A stretch of DNA of 7,074 nucleotides from Vulcanimicrobiota bacterium (lineage in GTDB: Bacteria > Vulcanimicrobiota > Vulcanimicrobiia > Vulcanimicrobiales > Vulcanimicrobiaceae), in assembly GCA_003133025.1 (NCBI GenBank), contig PKZK01000010.1, positions 1 through 7,074 on the forward strand. Reading direction: 5' to 3'. The position numbers and the translations under genes were made by a program. Positions 1-7,074 of the stretch are shown piece after piece; the stretch's first letter is position 1; each line of letters starts with the position of its first letter. The notes below the pieces were generated by a model. That model saw nothing but the letters and a program-made list of their open reading frames with translations. It was not told the origin of the DNA and ran no database searches.

Positions 1-720
1 TCCGAGCGTTCGCAACGAGCCATCCTGTGGTGGGGCGTGGTCTTCCTTGGGATCTTTATGGTGGCCTGGATTTTCCTGCTGCAGATGGTCCCGCCCCCCT
101 CGCCGTGGCTGCCTGCCGCGGACGTCGCCGCCTACTACGCCGAGCACGCGTTCAAGATCAAACTGGGTGCGGTCATCGGCTCCTGGACCAGCGCCTTCAT
201 GGTGCCTTTTTCGCTGGTCATCGCGTTCCAGCTGGCGCGCATCGAGCAGGGCAAACCGGTTTGGTCGGTGTTGTGTTTTGCCGGCGGTTGTCTGATGTCG
301 ATGTTTCTGGTCTTTCCGCCCATCATCTGGGGCGTCATCGCCTTCGACCCGGCGCGTCCGCCCGACATCACCGCAGCTCTGAACCAGCTCGCGAACCTCA
401 CGCTGGTCACCACCGACCAGTTCTACATTTTTCAGATGATCGCCATCTGGCTGGTCGCCATCAAAGCCAAGCCGGATCCGCTATCGGCCTTCCCGCGCTG
501 GTTGGGCTGGGTGAACCTCTGGGTCGCGATCCTGTTCGAAGTCGGTGCACCGTCGTTCATGTTCAAGCGGGGGCCTTTTGCCTGGGATGGCTTGTTCGTA
601 TTCTGGTTTCCTTTCACGTTCTTCTTCTGCTGGCAGATTACGATGTACGTCAGCATGTTCGGTGCGCTGCGCCGGCAGGAACATGCCTCGGCGTTGCGTC
701 TCGAAGCGGCGACCGTGTGA
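1..720 (+). CDS. Uncharacterised multi-pass integral membrane protein (about 6 hydrophobic segments), probably 5'-truncated by the window edge
   Basis: Frame 1 is open from base 1 (SERSQRAILWWGVVFLGIF...) to TGA at 718-720; the ORF track starts it at GTG 37. It has GC3-rich codons, several long hydrophobic stretches and motifs PPPSP and FPRWLGW. I recognise no function. Confidence 0.75.
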   Translation, partial: SERSQRAILWWGVVFLGIFMVAWIFLLQMVPPPSPWLPAADVAAYYAEHAFKIKLGAVIGSWTSAFMVPFSLVIAFQLARIEQGKPVWSVLCFAGGCLMSMFLVFPPIIWGVIAFDPARPPDITAALNQLANLTLVTTDQFYIFQMIAIWLVAIKAKPDPLSAFPRWLGWVNLWVAILFEVGAPSFMFKRGPFAWDGLFVFWFPFTFFFCWQITMYVSMFGALRRQEHASALRLEAATV

Positions 721-730
721 CGTGTGCGGC

Positions 731-1780
731 TCAGCGCTGCGGCGATGAGTTCTTGCGCCGCGCGTTTTTTTTGGTCCGCGCGTCTTTTGCGCCTCCCGAT
801 TTGCGCTTCGGCCCGGGACCCGTCGGTCTGGCGCTCGCCGGCCTTGTGCTCGCCGGCCCGGCGCTCGGGCGTGGTGATTCGGCCGGCGCGTGCGGCGGGA
901 CCTGCGACAGCATAAGGTCGCGAAACGCCTGCGCGGCCGCCGACATGCGCTTGTCGCGGCGATGCACGATGAACCAGTAGCGCATGATCGGAAAGCTCTC
1001 GACCGGCAGCACGGCGAGATGTCGCGTTTCGAGTTCGAGTTCGATGGTTTGCAGCGACACGACACCCAAACCCAGACCCGCACGTACCGCTTGCTTGATC
1101 GCCTCATTCGTATTGAGCTCGCACGCCAAGGTGTACCTGACCTTGTGCTGTGCGAAGTGGCGCTCGGCTGCGGCCCGCGTGCCGGAGCCCGTCTCGCGCA
1201 TGACGAGCCGCTCCTCATGCAGGCGCGCGAGACTCACGTGCGCGAGCCGCGCCAAGGGATGACTCGGGTCGGCAATCACCACGAGAGGATTGTCCATGAA
1301 GCGTTGTGCGTCGAGGTCCACGCCTTCGGGCGGTTCGCCGAGAATGGCGATGTCGGTCCGGTGGTCCGTCAAGGACGCAAGCACCGATTCCCGATTGCCC
1401 ACCTGCAGACTGATCTGCACGCCGGGATAACGTTCGTTATAGGCGGCGATCAAGGGCGGCAGGAAATAATTTGCCGTCGATACGACCGCAATTCGCAGCA
1501 GCCCGCGCTCGATGCCGCGGAATTGATCCATCGCCGATTGCAACTCGGTGAGCTGCGTGGCGAAGCGCTGCGCATGTCGGCGCAATTCCTGGCCCGCCTC
1601 GGTGACATACATGCGCCGACCGTTCTGCTCGAGCAGCGGCACGCCGATCTGCTCCTCGAGCTGCTTCATCTGCATCGACACCGCGGGTTGGGTCAGATGC
1701 ATCTCCTCCGCTGCCCGGGACATCGAGCTGTGGCGGGCGACGGATTCAAAAATGCGCAGTTGACGTAACGTGATTTGCAT
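731..1780 (-). CDS. cbbR: LysR-family transcriptional regulator CbbR, with a 56-aa low-complexity C-terminal extension
   Basis: N-terminal LysR HTH (TLRQLRIFESVARHSSMSRAAEEMHLTQPAVSMQMKQLEEQIG). The substrate-binding domain has CbbR/CysL-like motifs (VVSTANYFLP, RETGSGTR, NEAIKQAVRAGLG). It is divergently oriented immediately upstream of cbbL, the classic cbbR position. Confidence 0.92.
   Translation of the reverse strand: MQITLRQLRIFESVARHSSMSRAAEEMHLTQPAVSMQMKQLEEQIGVPLLEQNGRRMYVTEAGQELRRHAQRFATQLTELQSAMDQFRGIERGLLRIAVVSTANYFLPPLIAAYNERYPGVQISLQVGNRESVLASLTDHRTDIAILGEPPEGVDLDAQRFMDNPLVVIADPSHPLARLAHVSLARLHEERLVMRETGSGTRAAAERHFAQHKVRYTLACELNTNEAIKQAVRAGLGLGVVSLQTIELELETRHLAVLPVESFPIMRYWFIVHRRDKRMSAAAQAFRDLMLSQVPPHAPAESPRPSAGPASTRPASARPTGPGPKRKSGGAKDARTKKNARRKNSSPQR
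735..772 (+). terminator. Putative intrinsic (Rho-independent) terminator of the membrane-protein gene, lying inside the antisense 3' end of cbbR
   Basis: Stem CGC(T)GCGGCG (735-744) pairs with CGCCGCGCG (756-764) around an 11-nt loop. It is followed directly by T8 (765-772) and starts 15 nt after the stop codon at 720. The loop is larger than typical. Confidence 0.5.
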
Positions 1781-1817
1781 GGTCGCACCCGGTGAACGCG
1801 TGACTCACGGTCAATCC

Positions 1818-1832
1818 ATCAGAGTAATTGAT
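1818..1832. promoter_or_regulatory. Putative CbbR (LysR) recognition site, ATCA-N7-TGAT
   Basis: The dyad ATCA-gagtaat-TGAT contains the T-N11-A LysR box (T1819...A1831). It sits in the AT-richer cbbR-cbbL intergenic region, about 22 bp upstream of the putative -35. Confidence 0.65.
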
Positions 1833-1853
1833 ACATGCAGCAGAAGAACTGAA

Positions 1854-1882
1854 TTGTTCTCGCACCGAAAGCTCACTAAGGT
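1854..1882 (+). promoter_or_regulatory. Putative sigma70-type promoter of the cbbL/cso operon
   Basis: -35 TTGTTC (1854-1859), a 17-nt spacer and -10 TAAGGT (1877-1882, fits TAnnnT). The geometry suits a LysR-activated promoter. Confidence 0.5.
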
Positions 1883-1906
1883 GGCCGCGCACCCCAAAAA
1901 GCGGTC

Positions 1907-1912
1907 AGGAGA
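1907..1912 (+). promoter_or_regulatory. Shine-Dalgarno site of cbbL
   Basis: AGGAGA lies 5 nt before GTG at 1918. Confidence 0.7.
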
Positions 1913-1917
1913 GCAGC

Positions 1918-3298
1918 GTGGCAGAAAAAAGTTATACAGCCGGTGTCAAGGACTATCGAAAAACTTACTGGACTCCGGACTACGTGCCCCTCGACACGGA
2001 TCTCCTGGCAGTCTTCAAGATTGTAACCCAGAGCGGCGTGCCGCGAGAGGAGGCGGCGGCAGCGGTGGCTGCGGAGTCCTCGACCGGTACCTGGACCACC
2101 GTGTGGACGGATCTGCTCACGGATCTGGATTACTACAAGGGCCGTGCGTATCGCATCGAGCCGGTGCCCGGCGACCCCACCGCGTTCTACGCGTTCATCG
2201 CGTACCCGCTCGACTTGTTCGAAGAGGGATCGGTCGTCAACGTGCTCACCTCGCTCGTGGGCAACGTGTTCGGCTTCAAAGCCGTGCGCAGTCTGCGTCT
2301 CGAAGACCTCCGCTTTCCGCTGGCCTACGTGAAGACGTGCGGCGGCCCGCCCAACGGCATTCAGTTGGAGCGCGACCGGCTCAACAAGTACGGGCGTCCC
2401 TTCCTGGGTTGCACGATCAAACCGAAGCTCGGACTCTCGGCGAAGAATTACGGTCGCGCGGTGTACGAATGTCTGCGCGGCGGGCTCGACTTCACCAAGG
2501 ACGATGAAAACATCAATAGCCAGCCCTTCATGCGCTGGCAGCATCGCTTCGAGTTCGTCATGGAGGCCGTTCAAAAGGCCGAAGCCGAGACGGGCGAGCG
2601 CAAGGGTCACTATCTCAACGTGACCGCGCCGACGCCGGAAGAGATGTACAAGCGCGCGGAGTTCGCCAAGAGCCTCGGCGCGCCGATCATCATGCACGAC
2701 TTCCTCACCGCGGGCTTCACGGCCAACACGGGCCTGGCCAACTGGTGCCGCGAGAACGGCATGCTGCTGCACATCCACCGCGCGATGCANNTGTCTGCGC
2801 CTTTCCGGCGGCGACCATCTGCACTCGGGTACGGTCGTCGGCAAACTCGAAGGCGATCGCGAAGCGACGATCGGCTGGGTCGACATGATGCGCGAACCCT
2901 TCATCCCCGAGAACCGCTCGCGCGGCATCTTCTTCGATCAGGATTGGGGCGCGATGCCCGGCGTGATGCCGGTCGCATCGGGCGGCATCCACGTGTGGCA
3001 CATGCCCGCGCTGACGGCGATCTTCGGCGACGACGCCTGCTTCCAGTTTGGCGGCGGCACCCTCGGGCATCCGTGGGGCAACGCGGCGGGCGCCCACGCC
3101 AATCGCGTCGCGCTCGAAGCCTGCGTCGAAGCGCGCAATCAAGGCCGTCCGGTCGAGCGCGAGGGTCGCGAGATCCTCACCGAGGCCGCGAAAGATTCGC
3201 CCGAACTGCGCATCGCGATGGAAACCTGGAAAGAGATCAAGTTCGAGTTCGACACCGTCGACAAGCTCGACGCACCCGCGCGCGTCGGCGCCAACTAA
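1918..3298 (+). CDS. cbbL: RuBisCO large subunit, form IA (carboxysomal type); interrupted by an NN gap at 2790-2791
   Basis: Begins (M)[17 protein letters not shown] at GTG 1918. Motifs include [29 protein letters not shown] (carbamylation site) and HIHRAMH. After the NN it resumes in another frame as [21 protein letters not shown]...ASGGIH...[13 protein letters not shown]...[15 protein letters not shown] to TAA at 3296-3298. About 18 conserved residues (about 55 nt) are missing at the gap, giving a restored length of about 477 aa. Tyr72 (DYYKG) is a form IA feature. Confidence 0.97.
2790..2791. other. Sequence gap (NN) in cbbL
   Basis: The flanking protein sequences are non-contiguous by about 18 aa and the frame changes. 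Confidence 0.9.
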
Positions 3299-3316
3299 GC
3301 GCCCGGAGAAGAAGCG

Positions 3317-3658
3317 ATGGCTGAAATTCTGCCTTACCCCACCACCCAGCGCCGCGGCGAAACGTTCTCGTACCTGCCGCCCATGACGCCCGAGCGTCTG
3401 CGCAAGCAGATCGCGTACTTGATCTCGCAGGGCTGGAATGCGGCCATCGAGCACACCGAGCCCGAAAAATCGTTCTCGAGCTTCTGGTATCTCTGGAAGC
3501 TGCCGATGTTCGGCGAGACGTCGATCGATCGCGTCCTCGAAGAACTCGAGGCGTGTCACCGCGCGAATCCGGGCCACCACGTGCGTTTGCTCGGCTACGA
3601 CAACTACGCGCAGTCGCAGGGCACGGCATTCATCGTCTTCCGCGCCGGTTCGCGCTGA
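3317..3658 (+). CDS. cbbS: RuBisCO small subunit, form IA
   Basis: 113 aa with [26 protein letters not shown] and [10 protein letters not shown] motifs. SD-like GGAGAA at 3305-3310. Confidence 0.97.
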
Positions 3659-3670
3659 GCCGGTAGAGCG

Positions 3671-5122
3671 ATGTCGGTCGTTTCATCCGAGATCGGCGGC
3701 AGGGCCGCTTCGATCGCGCGCCGCCGTCAGCTCTCCGCCGGTAAGGCGGCGCTGATTCCGGCCTCATCCGTCGCAGCGCCGGCGCCTGCAGCTGCCGCTT
3801 CGCCTGCGCCGTCCGCGCCGGCGCCCAAGCCTGCTTCGCCGGCGTTCGCCGGCGCGAACGCTCGCGATATCGCCCGTGCACGCCGCGCCGCACTGAGCCG
3901 CTACGGACGCGGTAACGAACCGGCGGCGACGCGCTCGCGCGCCCCGCGTCCCGACGTCAACGCCGCAAGCGAGACTGCGCAGCCCGCGACGCAATCGGTA
4001 CGGCCGTCGACCCAAGCGCCGCAACCGGCGAGCGTAACGTCCTCGCGCACGGGAAGCGGTTCGCAGGTGACCGGCACCGATCGCGGCGCGCAACTGCCCG
4101 TTTCGCGCGGCGCCGCTCCGAAGGTGGGCATGACGCGGACGCCCGGCGGCGGCATCGTGACCGGTTCGCTCGTGCGCAGCACCGTGCGCATCACGGGCGA
4201 TGAAGCCGGCGCGTCCACGGTCGTCACCGGCGAGGCCGATCAGCTTCCACAGGACGATCTGACCGAGCGCGACGACGCGCGTCGCGGTCCGCAGTTTTCG
4301 CGCCGCGCCGAACCGCACGGCGCCTCCGTCTTCAGTGCGCGCTCGCAACGCTCGGCATCCATCGAAACGAGCAATGCGGGCTTGCCGGTCACCGGCACCG
4401 CCGTCGGCGCGAGCCTTCGCGTCACCGGCGACGAAGCGCTCGTGCGCGGCACCGTGACCGGCGCGCAATACGTTGCGCCCGCTCGCGGACAAGCCGCCTA
4501 TGCCGGTTCTCGTCCCGACCCGGTCACCGGCGCAAAGGTCGTCGTGGGCACGACGCGCGGCGGCCGGAGCGTCACGGGCATCGACGTGGAATACGACCCG
4601 CGCGTAACGGGCGATGCACCGGCCGCCTGCACCTGCATCACCGGAAGCCAGTACAGCGCACCGCCCGCCGAGGGCGCAACGCAAAATACGAGCCGCTTCA
4701 CCGTGCGCCGTCTGCGCGAGAGCGCCGAACTGCGCGCCGGCGAGCGCGGCATCACCGGCTCCTTTGCCGTGGGCGACGAGAAGGTGACCGGCAATCGCGA
4801 GTTCTTTTTCCGCTCGCGTAAAGCGCCCGACGATGTAAAGCCCGCACACTTGCAGATCACGGGCGAAGGCCGGTCGTCCGGAACCCGCATCACCGGCGGC
4901 GCCTGGGGCGAACAGTCGAACGTCACCGGCACTGACGGGGCATTCGCGCGCGAGCGCAATCCGAGCATGCGCGCGGGCAAACCGCAAACGTTCGCCGCCG
5001 GCGCCACCCGTTTCAAAGCGTCGGCTGCGAAGAAAGATCCCCAGAACGTGGTGACCGGCATGTCGGGCTATTCTTCGGAGACGGGCGCGACCGTGACGCT
5101 CTCGGGCGGAGCCCGGGGATGA
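3671..5122 (+). CDS. csoS2: Alpha-carboxysome scaffold protein CsoS2 (unusually short, 483 aa)
   Basis: Arg-rich N-peptides ([34 protein letters not shown]), many [V/I]TG motifs arranged in triads, and the hallmark C-terminus ...RNP...VTG.SG...VTLSGGARG. It lies between cbbS and csoSCA and contains no Ns. Confidence 0.95.
   Translation: MSVVSSEIGGRAASIARRRQLSAGKAALIPASSVAAPAPAAAASPAPSAPAPKPASPAFAGANARDIARARRAALSRYGRGNEPAATRSRAPRPDVNAASETAQPATQSVRPSTQAPQPASVTSSRTGSGSQVTGTDRGAQLPVSRGAAPKVGMTRTPGGGIVTGSLVRSTVRITGDEAGASTVVTGEADQLPQDDLTERDDARRGPQFSRRAEPHGASVFSARSQRSASIETSNAGLPVTGTAVGASLRVTGDEALVRGTVTGAQYVAPARGQAAYAGSRPDPVTGAKVVVGTTRGGRSVTGIDVEYDPRVTGDAPAACTCITGSQYSAPPAEGATQNTSRFTVRRLRESAELRAGERGITGSFAVGDEKVTGNREFFFRSRKAPDDVKPAHLQITGEGRSSGTRITGGAWGEQSNVTGTDGAFARERNPSMRAGKPQTFAAGATRFKASAAKKDPQNVVTGMSGYSSETGATVTLSGGARG
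3698..3913 (+). repeat. Two CsoS2 N-terminal RuBisCO-binding repeats (aa 10-28 and 64-81) separated by a Pro/Ala linker
   Basis: The protein-level pattern R-x5-RR-x2-LS-x1-2-G[K/R] occurs twice. Confidence 0.8.
4031..4654 (+). repeat. CsoS2 middle-region repeats: one degenerate (aa 121-147) and three complete (aa 151-191, 230-267, 289-328)
   Basis: Each complete repeat has the VTG-x8-[V/I]TGD-x7-[V/I]TG triad, for example IVTGSLVRSTVRITGDEAGASTVVTG, PVTGTAVGASLRVTGDEALVRGTVTG and SVTGIDVEYDPRVTGDAPAACTCITG. Confidence 0.8.
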
Positions 5123-6189
5123 TCGTCTCAGCGCCGCGCGAGCGAGGCCGCTTGCGTCGCACCCCGCACGCCGCCCGTATTTGGGCCGCTACGGAACAGG
5201 CCGCGCATGCCGCGCCCGGTGCCACGCACGTGCTCGCCGATGCGGCCTTGAGTGCGGCGCTTCGCGCGCGCGCAACCGAGATCGAGTCGGCCTTCGCGCC
5301 CCTCGAGTCGAGCGTTCGCGGCCTTTCGTTGCCGCTCGCGGAGGATGCCGGCCGAACGGGTGCGCGGCTGCGCTCGGTGTTGTACGGCGACCTCGTCGTC
5401 GACACGTTCCTGGAGTTGGTCGGGCGCGCGTTCGATCGCAACCTGGCGGACTTCAGCGATGGCGAACCCGTCGAGACGCTCATCCGCCGCTGGGGCTTCC
5501 ACGCGATCGNNACGCGCTACTTGAAGATCGGCGTCTATCATTTCAGCGGCGCGAACGCGGGCCGTGAAGGCTGCGCGGCGCACGGACACGATGCGCTGCG
5601 CGCGGCGACCGCGCTGCTCGAGCGCCTGGACGATTTCGCGCAGGCCGTACAGCGCACGCATTGCTGCGGCGCTTCGGTTGCGACCTTGCTCGTCGGCGTG
5701 GACACCGACACCGACGCGATCCGCGTGCACGTCCCCGATGCCGCGGGCCGCGCCTCGGTCACGCGCTTCGTGGACAACACGGCGCTCTACGCGCAGACCC
5801 AACATCTGCAGCGCGATGCGGCGAAGGACGCGATTCGCGATGCCGTGGCCGCCTGCGCCGGCCTCGATCCCGCCGATACGGCGACGGAAGGCATGCGCTG
5901 GTTCTGCGGCTATCTCTTGAAGAACAACATCGGTCAGATCGATGCGGTGCGGTCCTGGTACGGCGGCGGCTACGCCGATCGCGGCCACACCGAACGTATC
6001 ATCGTCGTGGGCGACGCGCTCGACGACGTGCAACTGCGCAACCTCGTCTTCCAAGCCCANNGCGTCCGCGCCCGGCGTCTGGCCGACGCGATCCTCGCGC
6101 GCTACGCACACCTCGCGGGTACCGGTTCGCTCTGCGTTCGTGCGATCGCGCGCGGCAGCGACGGCCTCATTACGGAGCTCCACGCGTGA
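5119..6189 (+). CDS. csoSCA: Carboxysomal beta-class carbonic anhydrase CsoSCA (CsoS3); two NN gaps (5510-5511, 6060-6061)
   Basis: Motifs GFHAI, TRYLKIGVYHFS, GCAAHG (His and Cys zinc ligands), HCCGAS, GVDTDTDAIRVHVPD, EGMR.F...LL.NN, GH.ER and Q.RNL. ATGA overlaps the csoS2 stop. The expected segment with the first Cys ligand (PC.DGR) falls inside the first gap. Confidence 0.93.
   Translation: MIVSAPRERGRLRRTPHAARIWAATEQAAHAAPGATHVLADAALSAALRARATEIESAFAPLESSVRGLSLPLAEDAGRTGARLRSVLYGDLVVDTFLELVGRAFDRNLADFSDGEPVETLIRRWGFHAIXTRYLKIGVYHFSGANAGREGCAAHGHDALRAATALLERLDDFAQAVQRTHCCGASVATLLVGVDTDTDAIRVHVPDAAGRASVTRFVDNTALYAQTQHLQRDAAKDAIRDAVAACAGLDPADTATEGMRWFCGYLLKNNIGQIDAVRSWYGGGYADRGHTERIIVVGDALDDVQLRNLVFQAXXVRARRLADAILARYAHLAGTGSLCVRAIARGSDGLITELHA
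5510..5511. other. Sequence gap (NN) in csoSCA
   Basis: GFHAI is joined directly to TRYLKI; roughly 60 aa are expected between them. Confidence 0.85.
6060..6061. other. Sequence gap (NN) in csoSCA
   Basis: RNLVFQA is joined to VRARRL; roughly 50 aa are expected between them. Confidence 0.85.
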
Positions 6190-6455
6190 AGATTTGTCAA
6201 GTCGAAGGTACGCTCGTGGCCACCGCTCGCATCAGTGGCCTGCAAAACCGGCGTCTGCTGGTCGTCAAGGAGCGCGGCAGCAGCGGTAAGCAAGTCGCGG
6301 TCGATCCCGTGGGCTGCAAGCCCGGGGATTGGGTGATCGCGGTGGGCAGCTCGGCCGCGCGCGATGCCGCGGGCAGCAAGGATTACCCGAGCGACCTGAC
6401 CATCGTGGGCATCATCGACTACTGGGATGAAGCCGGCGGCCGCGCGGGAGCATAA
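6186..6455 (+). CDS. csoS4A: Carboxysome pentameric vertex protein CsoS4A (BMC-P, EutN/CcmL family)
   Basis: GTG start overlaps the csoSCA stop (GTGA), with GGAG at 6174-6177. 89 aa: MKICQVEGTLVAT...VAVDPVGCKPGDWVIAVGSSAARDAAGSKDYPSDLTIVGIIDYW. This is the 3' part of the 5661..6455 ORF in the track. Confidence 0.95.
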   Translation: MKICQVEGTLVATARISGLQNRRLLVVKERGSSGKQVAVDPVGCKPGDWVIAVGSSAARDAAGSKDYPSDLTIVGIIDYWDEAGGRAGA

Positions 6456-6718: not shown

Positions 6719-6775
6719 GCGCGGCGCGATACATCGATTTTCATGGCAAGCAATTCACAGCGAAGGAGAACGAAG

Positions 6776-6941
6776 ATGGCAAGCGAAAAAATGGGCATCG
6801 CGCTCGGCATGATCGAAACCCGCGGCCTGGTGCCGGCGATCGAAGCCGCTGACGCAATGACAAAGGCCTCNNCCGCATTCCGAGGTCGAACAGATTCTGC
6901 CGCTGCAGACGACCGAATCGGGCGCTGGCACGCGCAGCTGA
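6776..6941 (+). CDS. csoS1: Hexameric shell protein CsoS1 (BMC-H); N- and C-terminal parts flank an NN gap and may belong to different paralogues
   Basis: SD AAGGAG at 6763-6768. 6776-6870 reads MASEKMGIALGMIETRGLVPAIEAADAMTKAS. After the NN, 6873-6941 reads PHSEVEQILPLQTTESGAGTRS*, the CsoS1 C-terminal helix plus a tail. It is absent from the ORF track. Confidence 0.9.
6871..6872. other. Sequence gap (NN) in the csoS1 region
   Basis: AMTKAS is joined to PHSEVEQILP; at least about 50 aa of the BMC domain are missing. Confidence 0.9.
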
Positions 6942-6943
6942 TC

Positions 6944-7074
6944 GTGGGCAACCGGCTGACCCGCGAGGATGCGGTCGAGGCGGGGCGCGTCACGCCTGCG
7001 GTGATCGGCTGGTTGCAGCGTGCCCTGCGGCACGAATTCGCGGCCGCCCGCCAGTTCACGCTGCAGGCGGTGGT
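6944..7074 (+). CDS. Carboxysome-associated bacterioferritin-like (ferritin-fold) protein, 5' part only
   Basis: GTG 2 nt after the csoS1 stop, open to the window end: MGNRLTREDAVEAGRVTPAVIGWLQRALRHEFAAARQFTLQAV. It resembles Bfr helix A (VI..L...L..E..A..QY..HA), and bfr-like genes commonly follow csoS1 in proteobacterial cso loci. Confidence 0.7.
   Translation, partial: MGNRLTREDAVEAGRVTPAVIGWLQRALRHEFAAARQFTLQAV

Follow-up and report, generated by a model that had tools for sequence, protein, structure and literature searches.

How short can the scaffold protein of a carboxysome become while it keeps every kind of motif by which it binds cargo and shell, and would a shorter scaffold build a smaller particle? 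These questions are raised by a csoS2 gene on a 7,074-bp scaffold (C199) from a genome of the Vulcanimicrobiota, a phylum in NCBI taxonomy; the entire scaffold was analysed and is referred to here as the window. CsoS2 is the disordered scaffold protein of alpha-carboxysomes. The copy in the window has 483 amino acids (aa) and is almost certainly a real, intact and short CsoS2. We lean modestly towards reading it as a functional, naturally shortened scaffold in which all classes of binding motif are kept in reduced number and for which a smaller carboxysome would be predicted. Published work is drawn on from the available portions of Cai 2015 (PMC4499774), Turnsek 2024 (PMC11365436) and the Oltrogge 2019 and Oltrogge 2023 preprints.

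Identity and repeat architecture of the 483-aa protein

The csoS2 reading frame (3671–5122) is open and free of N, and none of the four NN runs of the window falls within it, so that the intact, gap-free gene of the original prediction is confirmed. The product matches CsoS2_M (PF12288) with 127 bits, where the cut-off is 22 (E 1.7e-36), and is the sole match to this family in a profile search of its genome. Its N-terminus aligns with those of homologues, and its isoelectric point is 10.9. Triplets of the form [VI][TS]G occur at aa 133, 163, 174, 185, 240, 251, 262, 285, 301, 312, 323, 361, 372, 396, 407, 418 and 461, and most of them can be assigned to the repeats listed in Table 1.

The repeats were located with hidden Markov models (HMMs) for the M- and C-peptides, built from 837 and 122 unique homologue segments, respectively. 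Three M-peptides carry a complete triad with 8-residue spacing between the triplets, and they are preceded by an eroded copy that gives only a partial match, as had been proposed from the sequence alone. The eroded copy keeps one VTG (aa 133) and a VS remnant and has lost the segment in which relatives carry the conserved Tyr. The proposed C-terminal layout is likewise found in full: ITG..VTG in the first C-peptide, ITG..ITG..VTG..RNPS in the second, and VTG...LSGGARG in the conserved C-terminal peptide. At the other end of the protein there are two Arg-rich N-peptides of the Rubisco-binding motif type. Compared with the motif given in the Oltrogge 2019 preprint, N-peptide 1 has one residue fewer before GK and N-peptide 2 has R in place of K. 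According to the available text of that preprint, at least two N-peptides occur in all 231 sequences considered, and two is the minimum that assembled carboxysomes; at the sequence level the window CsoS2 has that number. The motif positions are under constraint: in an alignment of 13 homologues sharing 46–63% identity, no variation is seen in the T and G of VTG, in the C-peptide region or in the C-terminal peptide.

The protein contains only two Cys residues (aa 320 and 322; window 4628–4636), as against six in relatives with five M-peptides and 17–20 in forms with eight. With so few, the redox role proposed for the Cys pairs can hardly apply here. Loss of M-peptide Cys pairs extends across the clade of the window protein, with none in P0003 and P0122 and two in P0002; Cai 2015, in its available text, describes CsoS2 members in which Cys is single or absent. 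No slippery heptamer of the type X XXY YYZ is found in frame in csoS2, and therefore probably one isoform is made and no CsoS2A. Eight strain variants were seen in the gene, four synonymous and four non-synonymous, which are too few for a test of selection.

Integrity of the assembly across csoS2

The gene offers little on which an assembler could go astray. Its only tandem DNA repeats are two short rows of low score, with periods of 10 and 12 nt and two copies each, and no exact internal repeat is longer than 12 nt, which leaves nothing for a k-mer assembler to collapse. The stretch is present in 20 runs from 15 studies, labelled as peat and moss metagenomes. Logan contigs from other studies run through the gene with 0 gaps and 4–8 substitutions each (X2, 3388–5500; X5, 3300–5500; X3, 3768–5500), and in run X11 csoS2 is covered by two overlapping contigs. 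A 14.5-kb Joint Genome Institute (JGI) contig, L084, matches window positions 2792–5509 at 99.78% identity, again with 0 gaps.

The same length recurs in independent contigs. The 90% cluster of the protein has 16 members; among the 15 listed, 13 are 483 aa long, on contigs of up to 108 kb, and fragments of 351 and 90 aa make up the remainder. To the extent that contigs can show it, repeat collapse within the gene is excluded. Two apparent joints, 3856>4735 and 4444>4737, are 21-nt matches from unrelated contigs and were taken as chance.

Length and repeat number among CsoS2 proteins

The published range of natural CsoS2 lengths is 563–1019 aa for 165 sequences, the shortest being that of Bradyrhizobium sp. 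BTAi1 with 563 aa, two N-repeats and five M-repeats (Cai 2015). In a larger set of 272 sequences, 1662 M-repeats and 528 C-terminal-domain repeats were counted, or ~6.1 and ~1.9 per protein (Turnsek 2024). We counted repeats in 339 proteins, made up of 120 listed matches, 150 listed of 263, 71 open reading frames (ORFs) from loci and the window protein, with overlaps removed; the sampling is thus biased towards relatives of the 483-aa query. Proteins with an N-peptide, a strong C-peptide and the C-terminal end were taken as complete (n = 240). Counting was based on the HMMs, as a strict regular-expression count of triads undercounts divergent CsoS2.

One to eight M-peptides were found in 1, 2, 10, 29, 160, 22, 7 and 9 of the 240 complete proteins, in that order. 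Three or fewer thus occur in 13, which include the window protein and its own cluster representative, and the other 227 have more. Among 93 complete representatives at 50% identity, seven have three or fewer M-peptides, five are no longer than 483 aa and 12 are shorter than 563 aa. The window CsoS2 therefore lies in the lowest few percent and below the printed range, and it is neither unique nor minimal. Its M-peptide number is below that of any member described in the main texts of the published work, whose supplementary tables may list short forms. When the literature was searched for naturally short, minimal or truncated CsoS2 proteins, the only truncations to emerge were engineered ones.

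The same architecture of two N-, three M- and two C-peptides is found in P0002 (469 aa, on contigs of up to 190 kb) and P0003 (487 aa). P0004 and P0005, which are 5'-truncated fragments that end before the N-peptides, show the same eroded first M-peptide, three M-peptides and two C-peptides. The architecture is stable over a clade whose members have diverged to ~57–62% identity. Other short forms are P0124 (483 aa, the type of locus L007), P0123 (472 aa), P0134 (515 aa) and P0143 (517 aa).

Still shorter proteins exist. P0166, from locus L011 (L011:5785-6696) of a Vulcanimicrobiota bog genome, has 303 aa and is encoded directly after cbbS; it and its variants (also P0282–P0284) are found on 31, 7, 4 and 3 contigs of up to 59 kb. 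P0242 has 301 aa and lies on a 185-kb contig. These forms belong to two lineages and have one recognisable N-peptide and one or two M-peptides. Having only one N-peptide, they are at odds with the minimum of two given in print. They resemble the window protein in having the same C-terminal domain, and L011 also shares the position after cbbS and a Rubisco large subunit that is ~97% identical; its genome, which we take to be G304, carries the family code (f1) that is also assigned to the genome of the window. They differ in being shorter still, and the window CsoS2 is intermediate. A search of the genome of the 303-aa form with Pfam CsoS2_M did not detect it, so that Pfam-based surveys would miss this form.

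The prediction that the window protein is unusually short therefore stands in part: its three M-peptides are exceeded in 227 of 240 proteins and its length falls below 563 aa, but other forms of 469–517 aa and the 301–303-aa forms exist, and the further suggestion of a natural minimal scaffold has to be given up on account of the latter. The yardstick used for it was the CsoS2 of Halothiobacillus neapolitanus, described as about 870 aa with four N- and six or seven M-repeats. These figures agree with the literature, which gives 869 aa with four N- and six M-repeats (Cai 2015) or seven M-repeats (Turnsek 2024). As a baseline they mislead, as members of the window's own subfamily typically have five M-peptides and ~560–700 aa (~600 aa in round terms), and the reduction is from five to three plus a remnant, not from seven.

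The protein of H. neapolitanus is nevertheless alike in kind. It shares PF12288, the layout of N-, M- and C-peptides followed by a C-terminal peptide, the Arg-rich N-peptide, [VI][TS]G triplets 8 residues apart, and a site between cbbS and csoSCA. It differs in its 20 Cys residues (Cai 2015, available text), as against two in the window, in its greater length and repeat numbers, and in making CsoS2A, for which the window gene has no in-frame slippery site. The BTAi1 protein is closer: it is of the same subfamily, with two N-peptides, few Cys and a high isoelectric point, and the related Bradyrhizobium denitrificans locus L072 is placed together with the window in one large clade of the C-terminal-domain tree. 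Compared with BTAi1, the window CsoS2 is 80 aa shorter, lacks the last M-peptide and the Tyr half of the first, and has shorter linkers.

Origin of the shortening

Alignment with relatives that have five M-peptides shows where the residues have gone. The clade of the window is without the last M-peptide and the linker that precedes it (columns 407–472), and its linkers are shorter at columns 273–284 and 340–352. In the remnant of the first M-peptide the indels differ between clade members. Relative to the five-M proteins, the shortening came about in three ways: the last M-peptide was lost, the first decayed and the linkers contracted.

A FastTree phylogeny of the C-terminal domain was computed from 112 rows of the 240, comprising all proteins below 760 aa with four or fewer M-peptides, all named loci and one in every four of the remaining proteins; P0001, a near-copy, was omitted. 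In this unrooted tree, forms with three or fewer M-peptides need eight changes, at least five of which are forced by well-supported branches. The window protein groups with P0002 and P0003 within the majority of five-M forms, with modest support. Repeated loss of M-peptides across CsoS2 is likely on this evidence.

The scaffolds of different length occur beside similar Rubisco. The Rubisco large subunits of L084, L014 and L011, whose CsoS2 proteins have 483, 600 and 303 aa, are 95.8–96.8% identical, and the small subunits 85–87%. Between the window and L014, identity is 94% for CsoS4A, 87.5% for CsoS4B and 94% for the CsoS1 fragment, 43% for CsoS2 and 53% for CsoSCA. One family of peat and moss Vulcanimicrobiota may hold a natural series of CsoS2 proteins, with 600 aa and five M-peptides, 483 aa and three, and 303 aa with two M-peptides and one N-peptide. 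We put forward tentatively, as somewhat less probable than not, that this series corresponds to graded carboxysomes which, if size follows the ratio of M- to C-peptides (M:C), would reach well below 100 nm and would possibly be tuned to CO2-rich peat. If so, the 303-aa form would break the rule of at least two N-peptides and the window CsoS2 would be the middle step. The 600-, 483- and 303-aa scaffolds with nearly the same Rubisco offer ready-made material for a test of the size model.

Predicted particle size and alternative readings

By homology with H. neapolitanus, the N-peptides would tether the L8S8 Rubisco, the M-peptides would bind the junctions of CsoS1 hexamers on low-curvature facets, and the C-peptides and C-terminal peptide would bind high-curvature regions near the vertices. 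The premise of the original prediction that fewer M-repeats shrink the shell is borne out by the available text of the Oltrogge 2023 preprint, in which particle diameter is ~40 nm with no M-peptides, 94 nm with seven and 130 nm with 13. In the same source, removal of the frameshift isoform reduces the diameter from ~114 to 93 nm, particles with the B form only being smaller, and the authors predict that a low natural M:C ratio gives smaller carboxysomes. The M:C ratio of the window CsoS2 is 3:2, as compared with 5:2 for its near relatives and 7:2 for H. neapolitanus. From this ratio and the probable lack of CsoS2A, the published model predicts particles below the usual 90–120 nm; a 'mini' carboxysome proper would have to lie clearly below 80–120 nm. 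As an outcome, particles smaller than usual would be an evenly balanced prospect.

The closest parallels are the engineered M-truncations of H. neapolitanus CsoS2B (Oltrogge 2023 preprint, available text), which also combine a low M:C ratio with the absence of a frameshift isoform. The window CsoS2 differs in that it evolved in nature and has a Rubisco and shell of its own. Dependence of size on M-peptide number has been shown only in engineered variants of one species, and compact scaffolds are of practical interest for carboxysomes in crops and for nanoreactors.

Several observations weigh against a functional scaffold of a smaller particle. The engineered H. neapolitanus variant with four M-peptides did not grow in air and needed 0.5% CO2 (Oltrogge 2023 preprint), so that a scaffold with three might be sub-functional unless the other components have co-adapted or there is ample ambient CO2. 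The size series comes from the shell and Rubisco background of a single species and may not carry over to another lineage. M-peptide Tyr matters for shell binding according to the available text of Turnsek 2024; here Tyr is present in two of the three M-peptides, and the third that we counted is a short, Tyr-less type, which is also found in the five-M relatives. The HMM thresholds and regular-expression definitions of the repeats are our own. The shell genes and csoSCA are carried by other pieces of the assembly scaffold, which is chimeric at one gap, their linkage to this particular csoS2 coming from scaffolding and from gene order in relatives. None of the 20 runs that contain the stretch is recorded as RNA.

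The best-surviving alternative is that the short CsoS2 is functional in carboxysomes of ordinary size, with size set by CsoS2 copy number, binding strengths, shell paralogues or Rubisco packing. It gains from the confinement of the size relation to engineered variants in one system and from the close relatives, which work with five M-peptides rather than seven. The trend is, however, monotonic from 0 to 13 M-peptides in the tested system, and its authors expect the same in nature. Rubisco is ~96–97% identical to that of five-M loci, with no obvious compensating change in cargo, and identity to a five-M locus is 94% for both CsoS4A and the CsoS1 fragment, which are encoded on other pieces of the assembly scaffold. 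We regard ordinary size as unlikely, though a serious contender.

A second alternative supposes relaxed selection in CO2-rich peat, with CsoS2 decaying toward loss of the CO2-concentrating mechanism, or with a mechanism that is adequate only at elevated CO2. The decayed first M-peptide with its clade-specific indels fits this idea, as do the near-absence of M-peptide Cys pairs (2 vs 6 and 17–20), the presence of CsoS2 in only 4 of 401 genomes of the phylum, the shortened forms in three of the four genomes that have it, and the need of the four-M variant for 0.5% CO2. Decay is harder to reconcile with a frame that is intact in 13 of 15 listed cluster members, remaining motifs that are invariant across homologues at 46–63% identity, an architecture that is stable over the clade, and retention of the DabB-DabA-PII inorganic-carbon pump described below; we consider it improbable. 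That the short length is an assembly artefact, through repeat collapse or a chimera within csoS2, is very improbable indeed: the source is a fragmented, scaffolded metagenome assembly (411 N runs, 265 contigs), the scaffold is chimeric at 2790 and contigs rather than raw reads were compared, but csoS2 has no N runs and no exact repeat above 12 nt, contigs of three other studies and one JGI contig are collinear with it, the 483-aa length recurs on contigs of up to 108 kb, and diverged relatives have the same architecture. The functional, naturally shortened CsoS2 remains the reading that we prefer.

The scaffold and the cso operon

The source genome was assembled from metagenomes and comprises 265 contigs, 3.35 Mb in total, at 80% completeness. 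Its 411 N runs include 366 that are exactly NN, which identifies the NN runs of the window (2790–2791, 5510–5511, 6060–6061 and 6871–6872) as scaffold gaps. The genes of the window are in the order cbbL-cbbS-csoS2-csoSCA-csoS4A-csoS4B-csoS1 (Table 1), and csoS2 thus occupies its usual cso-operon position among Rubisco genes, csoSCA, csoS4 and csoS1. The same order is found in the relative L085, which belongs to the short-CsoS2 clade and has a full operon with csoSCA, csoS4A, csoS4B and one csoS1.

Table 1. Features of the window and of the CsoS2 protein encoded in it
Feature	Window position	Strand	Protein position (aa)	Basis and remarks
Scaffold piece, probably of another strain	1..2789	.		membrane ORF, LysR/CbbR (-), 5' cbbL
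Membrane ORF	1-720			window gene list
LysR/CbbR gene, 349 aa	731-1780	-
cbbL, form I Rubisco large subunit	~1900-3298	+		3' part (2792..3298) on the gap-free piece with csoS2
cbbS, Rubisco small subunit, 113 aa	3317..3658	+		PF00101, E 3.8e-37
csoS2, 483 aa	3671..5122	+		ATG 12 nt past the cbbS stop; stop overlaps the csoSCA ATG (ATGA)
N-peptide 1, Rubisco-binding motif type	3695..3754	+	9-28	alignment, motif search
N-peptide 2	3854..3916	+	62-82	alignment, motif search
Eroded first M-peptide	3992..4105	+	108-145	partial HMM match, 14.9 bits; alignment columns 157-193
M-peptide, short type without Tyr	4115..4237	+	149-189	VTG/ITG/VTG 163/174/185; HMM 31.8 bits
M-peptide	4346..4498	+	226-276	VTG 240/251/262, Tyr 267; HMM 45.5 bits
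M-peptide	4529..4681	+	287-337	VTG/VTG/ITG 301/312/323, Tyr 328, both Cys (320, 322); HMM 54.0 bits
C-peptide 1	4715..4810	+	349-380	ITG 361, VTG 372; weak HMM match, 7.1 bits; alignment
C-peptide 2	4814..4966	+	382-432	ITG/ITG/VTG 396/407/418, then RNPS; C-peptide HMM 73.2 bits
Conserved C-terminal peptide, ending LSGGARG	5045..5119	+	459-483	V461-A481 invariant in 13-sequence alignment
csoSCA, carboxysomal carbonic anhydrase	5119..6189	+		split by gaps 5510-5511 and 6060-6061
csoS4A, pentamer protein, GTG start	6186..6455	+		94% identity to L014 homologue
csoS4B, pentamer protein, 86 aa	6458..6718	+		PF03319, E 2.2e-17
csoS1, bacterial microcompartment (BMC) hexamer	6743..7074	+		PF00936; broken at 6871-6872, runs off contig

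The gaps conceal coding sequence. The one in cbbL hides 55 nt, equivalent to residues 291–309 of a relative, and those in csoSCA hide roughly 196 and 170 nt by comparison with L085. L085 has an intact csoSCA of 466 aa in which the catalytic and the C-terminal domain are both complete; the 356-aa csoSCA frame and the frame changes in the window are an artefact of the gaps.

To the left of the cbbL gap the window departs from L084. Positions 1908–2789 are 91.7% identical to this contig and positions 1–1907 have no match in it. The 8.5 kb of L084 upstream of cbbL corresponds instead to contig C215 of the same bin (G000 contig C215:4685-13201) at 99.67% identity. This region encodes an OprB porin, an MFS transporter, a histidine kinase, a LuxR-type response regulator and a 291-aa LysR gene. 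The scaffold is therefore chimeric at the NN gap in cbbL. Because L084 bridges the csoS2 piece to C215, C215 is its true left neighbour, and the carboxysome genes are tied to the bin independently of scaffolding.

In L085 a lone csoS1 is followed by a pterin-4a-carbinolamine-dehydratase-like gene and a further, unassigned ORF (noted at L085:3509-3772).

Host genome and distribution in the phylum

Among the 40 nearest genomes none has a CsoS2 match. In a sample of 401 genomes of the phylum, PF12288 was found in three and a search with the CsoS2 C-terminal domain found four. The four genomes share one family code (f1), represent four genera, and have CsoS2 proteins of 600, 483, about 483 and 303 aa. 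Matching contig coordinates place loci L014 and L007 in two of these genomes, G248 and G377. So scattered an occurrence points to horizontal acquisition or to repeated loss. The P0124-type 483-aa protein of L007 is encoded on a 415-kb contig, which shows that alpha-carboxysome genes are truly chromosomal in the phylum. A search of the literature on carboxysomes in Eremiobacterota, WPS-2 and Vulcanimicrobium returned one unrelated paper and no description, and the present loci place alpha-carboxysomes in this phylum (Vulcanimicrobiota/Eremiobacterota).

Mis-binning of the window contig was considered and rejected: the absence of CsoS2 from the 40 nearest relatives speaks for it, and the match in GC content (65.8% for the contig, 66.5% for the genome) and the link through L084 to C215 oppose it. 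A profile search of the bin found no BMC or form I Rubisco gene besides those of the window. The bin does carry a DabB-DabA-PII inorganic-carbon pump, whose regulator is of the PII type, located among housekeeping genes on contig C43 (L083:6246-10692), and this operon is consistent with a CO2-concentrating mechanism in the genome. Elsewhere in the bin, a 389-aa frame on contig C232 (G000 contig C232:8629-9306) gives a weak RuBisCO_large match of 65.5 bits and is probably a Rubisco-like protein.

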